Below, in pieces: positions 24,586 to 48,537 of a DNA stretch of 64,000 nt (position 1 is the stretch's first letter; every line of letters begins with the position of its first letter). The notes beneath the pieces are model-generated. The model was not told the DNA's origin. It ran no database searches and saw only the letters and a list, made by a program, of their open reading frames with translations. The stretch is from positions 331,889 through 395,888 of the forward strand of contig CAWJNJ010000005.1 of NCBI GenBank assembly GCA_963844245.1, written 5' to 3'. The DNA is from an uncultured Acidobacteriota bacterium. GTDB lineage: Bacteria > Acidobacteriota > Vicinamibacteria > Vicinamibacterales > 2-12-FULL-66-21. The translations under genes and the position numbers were made by a program.

Positions 24586-24798
24586 ATGGCGAAACGCTGC
24601 GAACTCTGCGGAAAAGGGCCGGTCTTCGGCCGTAATGTCAGCCACGCGCACAATGTCACCCCGCGCCGGTTCGAACCGAATCTTCAGCGCGTGCGCGCGC
24701 TCGTGAATGGCGGCATCCAGCGCCTGCGTGTCTGCACGCGGTGTCTGCGGTCCAACAAAGTGGTCAAGGCCAGCCGGGCCAGCAAGGCCGTCGCCTAG
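24586..24798 (+). CDS. rpmB: 50S ribosomal protein L28
   Basis: [37 protein letters not shown] is the canonical bL28 N-terminus. Internal ATG of ORF 24523..24798. Confidence 0.9.
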
Positions 24799-42817: not shown

Positions 42818-44368
42818 AACTCGCCGCGAGCGCGGTCGCCGCGGCGCTGTGCATCACGATGATCACCGGGTCGGCAGCGCCCGCGTCGAGGCAACTGCGC
42901 GGCGCCGAGGGTCTGGTCCGCGCCTACGATTTCATACTCGACGCCCGCTTCGACCAGGTCGAGCCTGAACTCCGTAAGGCCTGTGGACCTGCGCCGCGCG
43001 AGGCCTGCGACGTGCTCGCGGCAACGGCCCTCTGGTGGCGCATTCAACTCGACCCCGACAGCACCGCGCTCGATCTCGAGTTCTCCACGCTCGTGGACCG
43101 GGCCATCGCGTCCACCGAGGCGTGGGCGGAACGCGCCCCGAATGATGCGGAAGCCTGGTTCTACATGGGCGGAGCGTATGCCGCCCGGGTGCAGTGGCGT
43201 GTGTTGCGGGACGAGAAGCTTTCTGCGGCCCGCGACGGCAAACGCATCCTGGAGGCGCTCGAGGAATCAATCCGACTGGATCCGACGCTGGATGACGCGT
43301 ACTTCGGAATGGGGATGTACAAGTACCTACGCCGATGTCGCACCAACGGCGGCGAAGATGCTCCGCTTCCTCCTGCTGCTGCCGGGTGGCGACCGCAAGG
43401 TCGGGCTCGAGCAGATGCGGCGCGCCAGGGCGAGGGGACGTCTACTGCAAGGAGAGGCTGACTATCAGCTCTCGATCATCTATCTCTGGTACGAGAATCA
43501 GACCCCGCACGCCATCAACCTTCTCCAGGCGCTGCACGAGCAATATCCGGGCAACCCGCTCTTCCTCTCACAGATTGCCCATATCCAGGACGCCTACCAG
43601 CACGACATCACCGCCAGCCTCGCCACCTGGCGCACGCTGCTGGCGTCGGCGCGCGAGCAGCGCGCCAACCTGCCCACACTGGCCGAGACACAGTCACGGC
43701 TCGGGATGGCGCGGATGCTCGAGGGACTGCATCAGACCGACGACGCGATCGAGCAGCTGCAGGCCGTGATCGCGCGGCGACCGGAGGCGCCATTCGGCTC
43801 GATGGCCCTGGCCTATCTGCGTCTCGGCGAAGCGCACGACCGGCTCGGCGCCCGTGCGCAGGCGGTCGAGGCCTACGCGGCGGCGCAGAGGCTCGCACCC
43901 GCAGAGGATCCGCACGAAGTGCGTTCGGCGGCCGCTGAGCATCTGCGACGCGCGCCAGACGTCCGGGCGGCTGAGGCGTATCGGCACTCACTCGACGGCT
44001 GGCGGCTCTTCGAGAAGAACGACCTTCCTGGCGCCGCCGCTGCACTCGAACGATCCCTCGTGCTCAACAGCAACGCGCCGGTCGCGCGCTATCGCCTCGG
44101 TCGCGTGATGCAGGCCATGAAGCAGGACCCCGCCGCGCTGGTGCAATTCGAGATGGCGATCCGCCAGGCCAAGCACGCCCCCGCTCCGATTCTCGGCAAC
44201 GCATATCTCGAGGGCGCGCGACTCCTCGAGCGCGCCGGCAAACGTGACGCGGCCCTCTCGTATTACCGCATCGCCTCGTCGCTCTTCGGCGCCGCCAGCG
44301 ACACGCGAGCGGCAGCCACACGCTCGATCACACGCCTTCGCAGCGGCGACGCGCGCACGCCGCGCTGA
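42814..44368 (+). CDS. secreted TPR-like repeat protein, frame broken by one extra nucleotide at about 43327
   Basis: ATG overlaps the ddl stop (ATGA). Signal peptide MKLAASAVAAALCITMITGSAAPA. ORF 42598..43461 is homologous up to GMGMYKY, then ORF 42983..44368 continues as YADVAPTAAKMLRFLLLLPGG. Junction reads aag tac C tac gcc. Confidence 0.65.
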
Positions 44369-44475
44369 CCTCCTCACACTTCCGTCACCGCGCGATCACT
44401 TCCGTCATCGCGATCACTCGCCGCGCAACGCACTCACACATTTCAACGCTGCAATGCACGCGACGACGTCGACGT

Positions 44476-44548
44476 CAGCACTGAATTGCATCGAGTGACC
44501 GCGAGTGCAGCACTGAAGCGCATCGAAGACATCAGCTTCAGCACTGTA
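44476..44548 (+). repeat. three phased CAGCACTG(A/T)A boxes (31-32 bp spacing) upstream of the micro-ORF promoter
   Basis: Boxes at 44476-44485, 44508-44517 and 44539-44548. Units 1 and 2 also share a GCATCGA extension; unit 3 has a diverged version (GATGCGC). Confidence 0.6.
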
Positions 44549-44636
44549 GTGATGCGCGCATCGCACCGACAACATGGGTGATGAAAAAAATCGGATGTCG
44601 AGCGGTTCGATTTTTGACTTTTCATGCACTTTGTGC

Positions 44637-44664
44637 TTGACAGTCTGATTTTCTCATCCATAAT
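44637..44664 (+). promoter_or_regulatory. candidate sigma70-type promoter for micro-ORF 1
   Basis: TTGACA (44637-44642), 16-nt spacer, CATAAT (44659-44664), in a locally AT-richer stretch. Confidence 0.6.
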
Positions 44665-44757
44665 CTACATCTTGTATGAGGGTGGAGTGCTCAGCCCACC
44701 TGTTGTAACCCTCGGTCACCGGTCACAAGCTGAGCTGCCTAATTCCAAGGAGGAATA

Positions 44758-44814
44758 ATGGCGAAGAAGACTGCAAAAAAGGGCGGCGCTAAAAAGGGCG
44801 GGAAGAAGCGCTAA
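44758..44814 (+). CDS. micro-ORF 1: 18-aa polybasic peptide MAKKTAKKGGAKKGGKKR
   Basis: AAGGAGGA SD at 44747-44754, ATG at 44758, TAA at 44812-44814. An intrinsic terminator follows 17 nt later. Paralogous to micro-ORF 2, with only synonymous differences. Confidence 0.65.
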   Translation: MAKKTAKKGGAKKGGKKR

Positions 44815-44831
44815 AGCCGCCTTGCCGGTCC

Positions 44832-44862
44832 GGGGGTGTCGCGAGTGACACCCCCTTTTCTT
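44832..44862 (+). terminator. intrinsic terminator of micro-ORF 1
   Basis: GGGGGTGTC-GCGAGT-GACACCCCC followed by TTTTCTT. Confidence 0.8.
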
Positions 44863-45068
44863 GGATGCTGACCTTCCGCACACGCGCGGGAGTCGAGACG
44901 CGGCCCGCGCGCATCACGCACGAGGGACGCCAGTAGAGCGGGGCCTAGGGATCCCGCCGATCAGCGAGACGCGAGAGCGCTGACAGCGCAGGCCGGCGCG
45001 CCGGTAGGCCGCGGCGCTGCAATGCGGTGAGGCTCATCGCAAACCCACAACGAAGGGGGGGATAAAGC

Positions 45069-45131
45069 ATGGCAAAGAAGACTGCAAAGAAGAAGGCTGG
45101 CGGGGCGAAGAAGGGCGGCAAGAAGCGCTAG
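45069..45131 (+). CDS. micro-ORF 2: 20-aa polybasic peptide MAKKTAKKKAGGAKKGGKKR
   Basis: Purine-rich GAAGGGGGGG ends 8 nt before ATG 45069. TAG at 45129-45131. Terminator 20 nt downstream. Confidence 0.6.
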   Translation: MAKKTAKKKAGGAKKGGKKR

Positions 45132-45150
45132 TTCGCCTTCCCGTTAGAAA

Positions 45151-45180
45151 GGGGGCGGCAGGCGCCCCCTTTGTTTTTGT
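45151..45180 (+). terminator. intrinsic terminator of micro-ORF 2
   Basis: GGGGGCG-GCAGG-CGCCCCC followed by TTTGTTTTTGT. Confidence 0.8.
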
Positions 45181-45186
45181 ACCTGT

Positions 45187-45285
45187 CAACTCCAAACTCC
45201 CAACTCCCAACTCCAAAACTCACGCCAACTGCGTCGCAGAGCGTTGCGTCGTGGTTGAAGTAGGAGTTTGGAGTTTGATTGAGTT
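45187..45285. repeat. imperfect palindrome built from AACTCC/GGAGTT words
   Basis: Left arm CAACTCCAAACTCCCAACTCCCAACTCCAAAACTCAC, right arm GTTGAAGTAGGAGTTTGGAGTTTGATTGAGTT. Perfect 12-bp pairing between 45189-45200 and 45263-45274. Confidence 0.7.
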
Positions 45286-45290
45286 AATCC

Positions 45291-47405
45291 CTATTGCCAG
45301 GCGCGCCCATCCCACACGCGCACCCGCTGAATGACATCCCCCTTCTGGATCTTGTCGACGACGTCCATGCCGTTGACGACGTGGCCGAAGGCCGTGTAGT
45401 CGGCATCGAGGTGCGGCGCCGGCGAGTGCATGATGAAGAACTGGCTGCCGCCGGTGTCCTTCCACGAGAGGGCCATGCCTACGGTCCCGCGCAGGAACGG
45501 ACGTTCGTTGAGCTCGTCACGGATCGAGTAACCCGGGCCACCTTCGCCATCGCCGCGCGAGTCGCCGGCCTGGATGACGAAGTTGGGGTCCACCCGATGG
45601 ATCGCAAGGCCGTTGAAGAATCCCTTGCGCGCGAGTGTCATGAAGTTGTGGGCCGTCTGCGGTGCATCGAGCATGGCGAGTTCGAACTCGATCGTGCCCT
45701 TAGCTGTTTCGATGAACACGTGCGGCGAGTAGTCAGGAGCAATGATCGCGGGACTGTTGTACGGGGCCAGCGCGACCGATGGCACCGGGCGGATCGCGCT
45801 GCGGTAATCACCTGATGGGTCCAAAGGCGCGAGCAGTTCGGCGGCGCGGACGCGTACTGCCCATTCCTTGTCGGCCAGGCCCAGCTTCAGTGTCTCGGTA
45901 GCCTCGGCCGCACCGAACTGGACGAGAGCCTCCATCGCCGCCGTCCGTGCGAGGTAGGCGAGATCCGGCTGCGCAATCTTCCATGCCTCGCGCAGGGCCG
46001 CCGCCCCACCTTCGGGCTTTGCCTCGCCGATGAGCGTAGAGACAGCGGCGCGGACGGCGAAGTCGGGCTCCTTCACGTGAGACAGCAGCAGCGATGGCGC
46101 GTCCGGCGCCTTGAGCCTGACCAGGGCGCGCAGCGCGGCCGGCCACACCCGCTTGTCTTCATCCTGGAGCATCGCGCGGACCCGGTCGATCGCGGCATCC
46201 GGCGGCATCGTCGCGAAAATACCGGCAAAGGCCGCGCGCACCGTCCAGTCACGATCGGGTTCGAGGCTCGCCAGTACGAGTAGAAACGTTTCAGGGTCGA
46301 TGAGGGCCGCCGCGCGTGCCGCCGCGATCCGCATCACCGGCCAGTTGTCGGTCATCAGATCCTGGATCACCGCCAGGCCTGCCGCGGCACGCATGGTGCC
46401 GAGGGCCGCCACAGCCTCGAGCTTGACGTTCGGGTCGATTGCCTTCTCGGAGATCAGCGCGACGAGCGGCTCGACCGCCGCCTCGGCGTTCAACCGCGCC
46501 ACGGCACGAATCGCCGACACCACGACCTCGTGAGGCCTGGTGCGCTCGAGAAGTGGAACCAGTGCCGGGGCGACAGATGGATCCTTCGAAGCACCCAGTC
46601 CACGCGCGGCAAAACTCACCGTGTACTTACCCGGGCCCTTCGCCAGAGCGGTGAGGGCCGGCACCGCCCGCGGATCGTTGACGCGCTGCAGCGCGTAGGC
46701 GACGGGCCACCAGTTCGACACCGGCCGGCCGTTCTCGACAACCGCTCCGGCGAGCGGCTCGAAGGCACCGAGCCTCACCAGCGCAAACAGGGCGAGCTTG
46801 AACGCCTCGGGCTCGGCTGCAGCCGGCCACTTCTCATCGTCGGGGGCCATCGCGGTGACGAGTGGATGCTTCGACAGTTCACGCGCGAGCGTCCCGATTG
46901 CGGGAGCCGCCTCCTTCGCACCAATCTGCCCGAGCGCCTCGGCCGCCCGGCCGCGGACGAGAGGATCGACATCGACGAGCGCCTGGGTCAACGGTGCGGC
47001 CGCAGAAGCGTGGCCGATCAGCCCGAGCGCGAAGGCCGCCATCTGTCGCACCTGCGCGTCCGGATCGGAGAGGAGGCCGGCAAGTGGCGCCACACCCTCA
47101 GGCAGACCCACCCGGCCGATCGCGAGCGCGGCGCGACGCCGGATCCGGCCTTCGGAGTCGGCGAGAAACGCCGTGAGGTCGGGCACCTTCGGGGGAGCGG
47201 GCTCGAGCTGGGGCTTGCGTCCCTTGGTGACCGGCGGCGCCACCACGGGGGGTGGCGTGTCCTTGAGAATGCGCTGATCCTCCAGCCTGAGGATGTCGGC
47301 CATCTTCACTTCGAAAGGCACGACCACCGGGGCCGGCGGCGGCGCCGTCGCACAGGCGGTCAGGAGCGGAAGAACCACGAAGGTGAGGAGTACAGCCTTT
47401 TTCAT
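45291..47405 (-). CDS. lipoprotein fusing HEAT/ARM-like repeats to a C-terminal cyclophilin-type peptidyl-prolyl isomerase
   Basis: Start taken at MKKAVLLTFVVLPLLTAC (lipobox). About 500 aa of Ala/Leu-rich HEAT-like repeats (DPxVRxxAAxALGxIG). C-terminus FHRV-type cyclophilin: GFFNGLAIHRVDPNFVIQAGD...GTVGMA...GSQFFI. Confidence 0.8.
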   Translation of the reverse strand: MKKAVLLTFVVLPLLTACATAPPPAPVVVPFEVKMADILRLEDQRILKDTPPPVVAPPVTKGRKPQLEPAPPKVPDLTAFLADSEGRIRRRAALAIGRVGLPEGVAPLAGLLSDPDAQVRQMAAFALGLIGHASAAAPLTQALVDVDPLVRGRAAEALGQIGAKEAAPAIGTLARELSKHPLVTAMAPDDEKWPAAAEPEAFKLALFALVRLGAFEPLAGAVVENGRPVSNWWPVAYALQRVNDPRAVPALTALAKGPGKYTVSFAARGLGASKDPSVAPALVPLLERTRPHEVVVSAIRAVARLNAEAAVEPLVALISEKAIDPNVKLEAVAALGTMRAAAGLAVIQDLMTDNWPVMRIAAARAAALIDPETFLLVLASLEPDRDWTVRAAFAGIFATMPPDAAIDRVRAMLQDEDKRVWPAALRALVRLKAPDAPSLLLSHVKEPDFAVRAAVSTLIGEAKPEGGAAALREAWKIAQPDLAYLARTAAMEALVQFGAAEATETLKLGLADKEWAVRVRAAELLAPLDPSGDYRSAIRPVPSVALAPYNSPAIIAPDYSPHVFIETAKGTIEFELAMLDAPQTAHNFMTLARKGFFNGLAIHRVDPNFVIQAGDSRGDGEGGPGYSIRDELNERPFLRGTVGMALSWKDTGGSQFFIMHSPAPHLDADYTAFGHVVNGMDVVDKIQKGDVIQRVRVWDGRAWQ

Positions 47406-47409
47406 AGGG

Positions 47410-48537
47410 TCAAGCAGATGCGCGCAGCTCGACGCGCTGTTCAGTAACGGCGGCGATCCGATCGTCGACAAGATGGACGCCGATGCCGGGTCCGGTTGGC
47501 ACCGCGATCGTGCCGTCGGGCCGGACATTGATCTCAGGGTCGATGAGGTCGGGTGCAAAGTAGCGGCGGCTCGCCGCTACGTCACCGGGGAGCGTGAAGC
47601 CCGGCAGCGTCGACAGATGAATGTTGTGTGCGCGGCCGATGCCACTCTCGAGCATGCCGCCATGCCAGACCGGAATGTCATGCTCGACCGCGATGTCGTG
47701 CATCGCAATCGACTGGCTGTGACCACCGACGCGCCCTGGCTTGATGTTGATGATGCGGCACGCACCGGCGCGGATCGCTTCAGCCGCGATTTTCGGCGTG
47801 TGCAACGACTCATCCAGACAGACAGGGGTTCGCACCCTGTTCTGCAGGATCGCGTGATCCAGCACGTCGTCATAGTCGAGCGGCTGCTCGATCATCATCA
47901 ATGCGAATTCATCCAGCCGGGCGAGATGCGCCGCGTCGTCGAGGTGATAGGCGGCGTTGGCATCGACCATCAGCGGCACCGGCCCGAACCTGGTGCGGAC
48001 GGCTTGTGCGGCCGCAACGTCCCACCCGGGTTTGATCTTGATCTTGATGCGCCGGTAGCCGGCCGCGAGCTCCACCTCGACCCGTTCAAGCAGCTGGTCG
48101 AGCGAGTCCTGGATACCGATCGACACGCCGGACGCGATGCCACTGCCGATGATCGCGTCGGATCCGCCCAGCAGCCGGCACAACGGGACGCCCTGCTGCC
48201 GTGCGAACAGATCCCACGCCGCCATCTCGACGGCGGCCTTCGCCATGTTGTGGCCGCGGATCGCGGCCAGCGCCGGGAAGATCTCCCGTGGGTGCGCGAA
48301 CTCCCGCCCAAGCACGGCTGGCGCGATGAACTGCTCGATGATGTGCCACGCGGTGCTCGTGGTTTCGGAGCCGTAGTATGGGTTGGCCTCGGCGACGCAT
48401 TCACCCACGCCGGTCAGGCCGTCACCTTCGACAAACACCAGGATGAATGGGCGTTCGTGGATACGGCCGAAGCTCGTCTCGAAGAATCGGACCAGCGGAA
48501 GGCGCAGGAGACGCAGCTCGATCCGCTCGATTCGCAC
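47410..48537 (-). CDS. enolase-superfamily enzyme (o-succinylbenzoate synthase / N-acylamino-acid racemase-like)
   Basis: 375 aa. KIKIKPGWD, MVDANAAY, IEQPL and CLDES fit the MR/MLE-subgroup metal ligands and Lys residues. No other men genes are adjacent. Confidence 0.7.
   Translation of the reverse strand: MRIERIELRLLRLPLVRFFETSFGRIHERPFILVFVEGDGLTGVGECVAEANPYYGSETTSTAWHIIEQFIAPAVLGREFAHPREIFPALAAIRGHNMAKAAVEMAAWDLFARQQGVPLCRLLGGSDAIIGSGIASGVSIGIQDSLDQLLERVEVELAAGYRRIKIKIKPGWDVAAAQAVRTRFGPVPLMVDANAAYHLDDAAHLARLDEFALMMIEQPLDYDDVLDHAILQNRVRTPVCLDESLHTPKIAAEAIRAGACRIINIKPGRVGGHSQSIAMHDIAVEHDIPVWHGGMLESGIGRAHNIHLSTLPGFTLPGDVAASRRYFAPDLIDPEINVRPDGTIAVPTGPGIGVHLVDDRIAAVTEQRVELRASA

Follow-up and report, generated by a model that had tools for sequence, protein, structure and literature searches.

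Can reading frames of only 18 and 20 codons be genes and, if so, does selection act on the peptide or on the RNA? The question is raised by two short open reading frames (ORFs), arranged in tandem, within a 64-kb stretch of DNA from an uncultured Acidobacteriota bacterium. We refer to the whole stretch (64,000 nucleotides, GC content 64.8%) as the window. Both ORFs encode strongly basic peptides.

44758..44814, plus strand: micro-ORF 1, ATG 44758 to TAA 44814, 18 codons, product MAKKTAKKGGAKKGGKKR; the extra copy, present in a sub-lineage
45069..45131, plus strand: micro-ORF 2, ATG 45069 to TAG 45131, 20 codons, product MAKKTAKKKAGGAKKGGKKR; the ancestral-type copy

No other ATG-initiated ORF of 10 to 45 amino acids with at least 25% lysine occurs on either strand of the window. 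A preliminary description of the locus had placed both ORFs, and a promoter-like site, correctly. Its codon-by-codon comparison of the two copies was also exact. There are six synonymous differences, no non-synonymous differences, one in-frame indel of 6 nucleotides (nt), and a TAA/TAG difference at the stop codon. The repeat shared by the two units spans only the region from ~9 nt 5' of the ATG through the stop codon. For this reason, as had been reported, the two leaders cannot be aligned with each other. Judged by comparison with related sequences, the pair belongs to a clade-wide and unannotated Vicinamibacteria micro-gene. It is conserved, under purifying selection, has a promoter, leader and terminator architecture, and is subject to an extra constraint at the RNA level. 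The comparisons make it very probable that the micro-gene is translated and selected as a peptide.

To place the ORFs in context, note that they lie between a plus-strand gene encoding a TPR protein (42983-44368), on the 5' side, and a gene encoding a HEAT-repeat and cyclophilin protein (HEAT-cyclophilin; 45291-47558, minus strand). The latter is convergent to the micro-ORFs, as first proposed. Genes for Ddl, Tgt, and SecD are further upstream of the TPR gene. Homologues of HEAT-cyclophilin carry the source name Vicinamibacterales (Acidobacteriota). In two contigs, with HEAT-cyclophilin orthologues 85% and 78% identical, the order Tgt/Ddl/TPR/gap/HEAT-cyclophilin is kept. Both micro-ORFs are in the gap and the peptides are identical or nearly so. 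Further loci came from two sources. First, a synteny set of 80 metagenome loci was obtained via the neighbouring gene, so that peptide ends were unconstrained. Of the loci with a full-length orthologue and 300 nt or more of sequence beyond it, 38 have a Lys-rich micro-ORF immediately downstream, in convergent orientation. Most contain a single 16-codon ORF, MAKKAKGGKKKAGKKR. Across the syntenic loci bearing micro-ORFs, the neighbouring HEAT-cyclophilin is 49-100% identical over the last ~165 residues. One locus (L018, 4588-4987) encodes a full-length orthologue, with 66% identity over the C-terminal region, and no micro-ORF was found in the 399 nt downstream; the micro-gene may have been lost or moved in this lineage. 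Nine other loci of the set have a similar identity in the PPIase domain and encode distant HEAT-cyclophilin homologues, or cyclophilins that stand alone. No analogous basic micro-ORF was found at loci of these two kinds.

Second, one genome per species was scanned, for 185,579 species, using the pattern ATGGCNAARAAR-N(12-42)-GGNAARAARCGNTRR with gap length unconstrained. At least 120 stretches matched and, of 120 listed, ~104 are from Acidobacteriota. The acidobacterial matches are labelled Vicinamibacterales, Vicinamibacteria, 'gp6', and, in a few cases, 'Solibacteraceae'. Among the matches listed, there is one stretch per assembly. In total, at least ~104 acidobacterial genome loci and ~40 metagenome loci were recovered, each with one or two ORFs of 14-20 codons. 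Wherever enough sequence was present to judge, the ORFs were convergent to the HEAT-cyclophilin gene and 50-400 nt from its 3' end, with one outlier at 1779 nt.

These loci provide the evidence for coding. Family matches have ORF lengths of 42, 45, 48, 51, 54, 57, 60, and 63 nt, all multiples of three. Across the eight length classes, 142 copies are in frame and 1 is frameshifted. Thus, the reading frame is conserved in relatives. The frameshifted copy is the second of a Vicinamibacterales metagenome-assembled genome (MAG; L114, 2887-2930, a 44-nt match) and may be an assembly error or a pseudogene. Unrelated scan matches, from other phyla, are mostly out of frame. In 40 distinct paralogue pairs, we counted 229 synonymous and 32 non-synonymous base differences, with 22% synonymous expected at random; these pairs share ancestry, and a p-value is not meaningful, but the direction is unambiguous. 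Many genomes encode the same peptide twice, while 3-9 synonymous sites distinguish the copies. Where a lineage has its own residue at position 5 (T, A or S), or the form of 14 amino acids, both copies share it. Serine is specified by AGT/AGC in some copies and by TCG in others. Of 189 ORFs, 186 have a strong Shine-Dalgarno (SD)-like site ahead of them, which is either AAGGAGGA or an extended G-run. The ATG, stop codon, and SD persist in both copies, whose flanks are unrelated. Since indels are in frame, synonymous changes are in excess, and the ATG, stop codon, and SD are conserved in more than 140 loci, we conclude that these are real coding micro-ORFs. This agrees with the earlier claim of selection on the peptide.

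An alternative is that the locus is a conserved non-coding RNA motif and that the ORF is incidental. Nucleotide conservation within the ORF is indeed very high and no gene caller annotates it. Conversely, the restriction of indels to multiples of three, over eight length classes, and the large excess of synonymous over non-synonymous changes argue for coding. So do the switches between Ser codon families, and the start, stop and SD conserved in two differently flanked copies. We disfavour the non-coding explanation, and consider it highly improbable.

How, then, is the micro-gene organised? Besides the ORFs, the following features can be recognised.

44611..44622, plus strand: A/T-rich element TTTTTGACTTTT, UP-like or a second -35-like box, conserved in alignments
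44637..44664, plus strand: sigma-70-type promoter TTGACA-N16-CATAAT, from a consensus scan, orthologous to the promoter of single-unit relatives
44678..44702, plus strand: P1 stem-loop, GAGGGUGG...CCCACC, 5'-proximal in the transcript, from a fold of the window transcript
44747..44754, plus strand: SD of unit 1, AAGGAGGA, from the sequence
44832..44862, plus strand: T1 hairpin, GGGGGUGUC...GACACCCCC with a U-tract, terminator-like, from a scan (site 44832-44855) and fold
44873..44892, plus strand: P2 hairpin, CUUCCGC/GCGGGAG, after T1, read by eye and also in the predicted fold
44966..45041, plus strand: P3, long leader hairpin, apical stem-loop GCC-GGUA-GGC at 45000-45009
45052..45063, plus strand: G-run extended SD of unit 2, GAAGGGGGGGAU, with an in-frame UAA just downstream
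45132..45143, plus strand: C-rich motif of the 3' untranslated region (UTR), UUCGCCUUCCCG (CYUC(N)CCCG in relatives); folding suggests that it pairs with the distal ORF half, covariation unconvincing
45148..45182, plus strand: T2 hairpin, AAAGGGGGCGG...CGCCCCCUUU with a U-tract, from a scan (site 45148-45172) and fold

The promoter matches the consensus at 11 of 12 positions (1 found, 0.3 expected) and is unique within the window, even if three mismatches are allowed. All classes of locus share the same promoter block, near-identical across the family: TTTTTGACTTTT, a spacer of ~14 nt, TTGACA-N16/17-CATAAT, and then CTACATCTKGTATGAGG. Within this, the 24-nt stretch CCATAATCTACATCTKGTATGAGG, running from the -10 element into the transcript start, occurs exactly in 77 loci and once per locus. 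Upstream of the -35 element, TTTTTGAC is found in 87 of 114 loci. No second sigma-70-type promoter, for unit 2, was seen in the window or in two-copy relatives. Hence, the preliminary description of each ORF as a self-contained unit does not hold. Just one promoter of this type was found, unit 1 is embedded in the conserved leader that characterises the unit-2 type, and no separate promoter could be recognised for unit 2. From one promoter, and the location of copy 1 within the leader, it follows that the units are not fully self-contained, and they are best described as a single transcription unit. So read, the window would contain one such unit, with the order promoter, P1, ORF1, T1, P2, P3, ORF2, T2. 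The unit-2 type is taken to be the ancestral arrangement of leader and copy.

Further 5' of the micro-gene promoter (window 44476-44549), CAGCACTGAAG occurs three times, with copies 31-32 nt apart. This is specific to the window and the 113 other loci are without copies. Accordingly, the triple repeat CAGCACTG, which was absent from the other 113 loci examined, was rejected as part of the system.

We next describe the leader, using per-sequence folds and statistics for flank duplexes. Note that RNAalifold gave no consensus for the 117-sequence leader alignment, which is too gappy, and none for the first 52 nt. In most of 89 unique leaders, the arm of P1 is paired, with alternation between G-C, A-U, and G-U. 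In single-copy genomes, ~130-250 nt of leader follow P1 and hold P3. The order after P3 is A(U/A)CCCAC, the invariant GAAGGGGGGGAUAA, the ORF, the C-rich 3'-UTR motif, and the terminator. The flanks of P3 can pair with each other in 98 unique sequences, with a mean duplex energy of -27.1 kcal/mol and a mean z of -2.04. For the same 98 unique flank pairs, left flanks are merely 38% identical, though pairing is kept. The apical part of P3, GUGAGCGUGCCAGGCGGCAGCCAC, is almost invariant in single-copy genomes and has diverged in the lineage of the window. The apical stem-loop of the window is the counterpart of a near-invariant CGUGCCAGGCGGCAGCC block in relatives.

The two copies differ in their ribosome binding sites. 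An SD of the AAGGAGGA type is ahead of 48 unit-1 ORFs, for which the ATG is always 93-97 nt past the -10 element. The G-run type is ahead of 138 ORFs, with a rather long SD-ATG spacing of ~9-12 nt. In the window, ORF2 is preceded by GAAGGGGGGGAT at 45052-45063. In the 117-sequence leader alignment, conservation of the G-run columns is complete or above 90%. Assuming a canonical 16S 3' end, GAAGGGGGGGAUAA can be read as an extended SD that includes G-U wobbles and precedes an in-frame UAA.

In two-copy genomes, copy 1, with its AAGGAGGA SD, is followed by T1, then P2, and then the rest of the ancestral leader with copy 2. P2 has the forms CUCCCGC/GCGGGAG and CUUCCGC/GCGGAAG in relatives. Many loci also have an anti-SD-like motif, GCUGACCUC(N)CCCG, found in the window at 44873-44879 and 45132-45143. 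It is after the stop codon in single-copy loci. In two-copy loci it is after the T1 U-tract and forms P2. The recurrence may reflect the way in which the duplication came about, or mark a functional site.

A hairpin and T-tract follow 45 of 47 unit-1 ORFs and are present in 129 of 137 G-run units, starting a median of 17 nt past the stop codon. For all units together, the figure is 174 of 186 ORFs, with the same median of 17 nt. T2, between two convergent genes, is symmetrical (A-tract/T-tract). Note that the two terminator-like sites near the micro-ORFs do not exceed the 1.5 expected from shuffles. Hence, T1 and T2 are supported as terminators by conservation in relatives, and not by their count in the window.

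Such an arrangement invites comparison with the trp, his, thr, and pheA attenuators. In these systems, likewise, a very short ORF rich in the codons of one amino acid is just 5' of an intrinsic terminator. Unlike the attenuators, the micro-gene has no same-strand operon downstream, its peptide is under selection, and no covarying antiterminator was found. A classic leader-peptide attenuator is ruled out since, in any locus, no same-strand gene follows and the next gene, encoding HEAT-cyclophilin, is convergent. The preliminary description had reasoned likewise. A broader possibility is that the ORF acts in cis. Here, translation of the Lys-rich ORF would tune termination at T1 or T2, with the peptide a by-product. 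As a sensor of lysine, or of translation status, the ORF would control read-through into copy 2, or antisense transcription into the HEAT-cyclophilin gene. About half of the codons are for Lys, the stop-to-hairpin distance is constant (median 17 nt), a single promoter serves two copies with T1 between them, and the neighbour is always convergent and 50-400 nt away. All would suit a regulatory ORF. However, single-unit loci have no following gene on the same strand, and a search for an alternative antiterminator pairing, supported by covariation, returned nothing convincing. Furthermore, conservation at the amino-acid level extends to the Gly, Ala, and Thr positions and to the C-terminal GKKR, and the copies co-vary in protein sequence; a codon sensor needs neither. 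We regard a purely cis-acting ORF as improbable.

Is the peptide the only target of selection? To address this, third codon positions were compared for codons encoding the same amino acid, in the class of 16 amino acids (70 loci), with the last 165 codons of the HEAT-cyclophilin gene as the baseline. Third-position identity was 0.89 in the micro-ORF and ~0.60 in the neighbouring gene. The respective values were 0.97 and 0.53 for Gly, 0.86 and 0.57 for Ala, and 0.92 and 0.76 for Lys. Codons 3-14 are almost invariant in this class, including the non-preferred AAA4, GGG8, and GCC5/12. Codons 2, 15, and 16 drift freely, and each copy type has its own codon habits. Since synonymous sites are frozen, part of the conservation belongs to the RNA, beyond the peptide. 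The earlier conclusion, of selection on the peptide and not on an RNA, is therefore half right. The peptide is selected, as claimed, but so is the RNA: orthologous leaders align, hairpins are conserved, and codons 3-14 are nearly frozen. The cause may lie in the initiation context of so short an ORF (16 codons), in base pairs formed by the ORF with the 3' UTR, or in base pairs formed by the SD with the 3' arm of the terminator. Both pairings are proposed by RNAalifold, but the variable positions do not co-vary, and we claim neither pairing.

These observations bear on whether the transcript is a dual-function RNA. In that case, the ~200-330-nt RNA would regulate via the apical loop of P3, or the purine-rich ORF segment, and also encode the peptide. 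The frozen codons 3-14, with their non-preferred members, are consistent with this. So are the conserved structures P1 and P3, the near-invariant apical block, and a promoter that is better conserved than neighbouring coding sequence. Known RNAs of the kind are SgrS/SgrT, RNAIII/delta-haemolysin, and SR1/SR1P. Like the micro-gene, SgrS/SgrT-type RNAs are short, independently transcribed and structured, with their own terminator, encode a peptide, and are constrained as RNA and as peptide. The micro-gene peptide is far shorter than peptides of the SgrT type, and polycationic, and here the RNA function is only a candidate. Moreover, the synonymous constraint is equally explicable by the translation-initiation or mRNA-folding needs of a 16-codon ORF, the apical block has diverged in the lineage of the window, and no Rfam family matched. 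On balance, a dual-function RNA seems rather unlikely.

We turn now to the peptide. In 35 distinct peptides, of 13-21 amino acids, the composition is 47% K, 18.5% G, 18% A, 6% R, and 3% T. Hence, the peptides consist of Lys/Arg (~53%), Gly, Ala, and a few Thr, Ser, Pro, or Val residues, with a charge of +8 to +14. Acidic, aromatic, and large hydrophobic residues are completely absent from the 35. A type I toxin, or membrane micropeptide, is ruled out by this composition, which has no hydrophobic transmembrane stretch; the preliminary description had already judged a membrane toxin unlikely.

It had also recognised no named family, and our searches of Pfam, NCBIfam, PDB, Rfam, and protein collections were similarly unmatched. 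With the 20-residue peptide as query, hmmscan gave no Pfam-A match at E up to 10, whether to bTHX (Pfam Thx) or to any other family. For NCBIfam, the same query matched 0 families at E up to 10, and so not the bS22 or bL37 models, with little power for so short and low-complexity a query. NCBI assigns the names bS22 and bL37 by means of its protein family models, and both proteins have been resolved in ribosome structures, mycobacterial and other. The phmmer search of all PDB chains gave 0 matches at E up to 10, again with low power for short low-complexity queries. Rfam matches were at chance level only: E was above 3 for the window region and above 0.1 for five related loci, far below gathering scores. 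Exact look-up of five variants of 20-21 residues, in a collection of 15 billion proteins, found none present. A concatenated query of three peptides, aimed at larger proteins containing the peptide, returned only P0121, and no protein with such a tail. P0121 (JGI contig, 933 nt) is a 58-residue gene call whose start is upstream, within the leader, and which continues across the G-run SD (…TKGGISA-MAKKTAKKKAGGAKKGGKKR). It is an annotation artefact: an over-extended call of the unit-2 ORF. In the literature, our searches turned up the known comparators bS22, bL37, bL38, and bTHX, and no account of the micro-gene peptides. Stress proteins with KGG repeats (YciG/GsiB, Pfam PF10685) have longer chains that include acidic and aromatic residues. 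They resemble the peptides in being Gly/Lys-rich and hydrophilic, with KKGG-like motifs, yet the Pfam scan with the 20-residue query was unmatched at E up to 10.

What might such a peptide do? High expression, a binding partner, and leader-based regulation are what we infer from the comparisons. The reading that we favour is of a translated polycation, controlled through the leader, that would have RNA as its target and, most probably, the ribosome; taken as a whole, we rate this at roughly an even chance. In this scheme, one strong and conserved sigma-70-type promoter would drive a small RNA with P1, a long leader containing P3, the ORF, and an intrinsic terminator. In the sub-lineage of the window, a second copy would have been placed within the leader, just after P1, with its own SD and T1. 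Copy 1 would be made from a short transcript. Copy 2 would need read-through or processing at T1, and would stay behind the regulatory leader. Passage of T1 could involve read-through, regulated antitermination, processing, or an unrecognised promoter. The selected product would be the peptide, an abundant free polycation with a polyanionic partner, for which RNA, and specifically the ribosome, is our leading candidate. The structured leader would determine the level of peptide translation or exert feedback on it.

The ribosome, or RNA, is ranked first for four reasons. First, there is precedent in lineage-specific polybasic micro-proteins found only in ribosome structures. Second, promoter and locus have a housekeeping-like conservation. 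Third, the exact co-variation of the two copies suggests a specific partner. Fourth, the leader is of the autogenous-control kind. Regarding precedent, bS22 and bL37 were recognised only in ribosome structures (for example PMC6133939, PMC10618245). The preliminary description had drawn the same parallel, and an association with ribosomes or nucleic acids is plausible. Like the micro-gene peptides, bTHX (~26 residues), bL37 (~24), bS22 (~33), and eL41 (25) are tiny, strongly cationic, lineage-restricted, and easily missed by gene callers. Unlike them, the micro-gene peptides vary in length, from 13 to 21 residues, and are Lys/Gly/Ala-only, without an Arg-rich or aromatic core. Neither sequence nor profile comparison links the two groups, and the micro-gene also stands out for its long structured leader and, in many cases, a second copy in tandem. 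In its most specific form, the favoured reading would make the peptide a stoichiometric component of the Vicinamibacteria ribosome, or an associated factor, with P3 and its invariant apical loop a new autoregulatory RNA element, recognised by the peptide or by the ribosome. We put this forward tentatively, as an unlikely refinement.

Several points weigh against the ribosomal reading, in which the choice of partner is conjectural. The ribosomal micro-proteins known so far are of fixed length and rich in Arg, with aromatic residues. A peptide confined to Lys, Gly, and Ala, of 13-21 residues, is at least equally compatible with a loose electrostatic attachment, DNA being one possible partner. 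The U-tract of T1 is long in many loci and, with no second promoter seen, the scheme must still account for expression of copy 2. To these may be added the near-invariance of codons 3-14 and the shared ancestry of the paralogue pairs. Note also that, in the genome-scan set, the search pattern dictated the motifs at both ends of the peptide; in the synteny-derived set, where the ends were free, the same N- and C-termini are found. Finally, when the invariant block of the leader was compared with E. coli rRNA, 126-167 of 200 shuffles scored as well for 16S and 23S, and 40 of 200 for 5S. Among the leader blocks there was one weak match, to E. coli 23S 1159-1182 (8 of 200 shuffles, 9 tests). Hence, there is no sign of rRNA mimicry by the invariant block, for which similarity was not above shuffled controls against the E. 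coli 16S, 23S, and 5S molecules, which stood in for rRNA of the micro-gene's own group.

The DNA-binding alternative is a nucleoid-associated micropeptide: a free-standing equivalent of H1-like Lys/Ala tails that would bind and compact DNA and not associate with the ribosome. Tails of this type are known in bacterial nucleoid proteins, namely the mycobacterial HupB C-terminus, Hc1, and AlgP (AKKA/PAKK repeats). They share with the peptides xAKK/PAKK-type repeats, as in the variants MAKKVAKKPAKKAGKKR, MAKKAPAKKATKKAGKKR, and MAKKAAKKAAKKGGKKR, an extreme Lys content, and probable disorder. Flexible length, and restriction to Lys, Gly, and Ala, also suggest composition-driven binding. However, the tails are domains of larger proteins, whereas the repeat is the whole product of the micro-gene, and the concatenated-peptide search found no larger protein with a similar tail or fused homologue. 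In addition, two copies per genome keep the exact peptide despite synonymous divergence, which argues for a specific partner. We consider a nucleoid role unlikely.

Vicinamibacteria (Acidobacteria subdivision 6) rank among the most abundant bacteria of soil. Here, annotation pipelines have left unrecorded a core gene, present at a single locus, whose promoter is one of the best conserved in its region. At 13-21 codons, the ORFs are among the shortest in bacteria with strong comparative evidence for selection on the peptide, and indicate what length cut-offs hide. The peptide is an easily synthesised candidate for a new ribosome- or nucleoid-binding polycation, and the conserved structured leader is a possible new cis-regulatory RNA. 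If the peptide does prove to be a ribosome component, it would be, at 13-21 residues, the shortest bacterial ribosomal protein known. The locus also carries a warning for RNA-motif screens. Because synonymous sites are constrained too, it would pass as a conserved intergenic 'RNA motif'.

Similar genes may occur elsewhere. Two Rokubacteria MAGs (L101, 3551-3683, and L111, ~595-725) contain tandem polylysine micro-ORFs of 13 codons. The first is MAKKKAKKKGKKR in L101, or MAKKKATKKGKKR in L111, with the SD GAGGGGGTGA. The second, MAKKKATKKKKK, has the SD AAGGAGGTGA and is followed by a terminator. The pair adjoins, and is convergent to, rpmB, encoding ribosomal protein L28. These micro-ORFs may be of the same family or of a convergent one. 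Unlike the Rokubacteria loci, rpmB of the window (24586-24768) is ~20 kb upstream of the micro-genes and unlinked. A Patescibacteria MAG (L155, 1375-1310, minus strand) has a 21-codon ORF, MAKKKKAAKKKAKKAKRGKKR, followed by a hairpin and T-tract, with no obvious SD. Together, the Rokubacteria and the single Patescibacteria case hint that polylysine micro-genes may be more widespread.

Lastly, repeats flank the micro-gene on both sides. Directly after the TPR stop codon (window 44377-44418) are two copies of a 20-nt tandem repeat, CACTTCCGTCA(C/T)CGCGATCACT. Between T2 and the HEAT-cyclophilin stop codon (window 45188-45277) are C/A-rich direct repeats of 14 nt, CAACTCCAAACTCC / CAACTCCCAACTCC. 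An inverted copy, GGAGTTTGGAGTTTG, is 55 nt further on, and jointly these form a long hairpin. Repeats of the CCCCAAT type are similarly located after T2 in loci L043 and L087.

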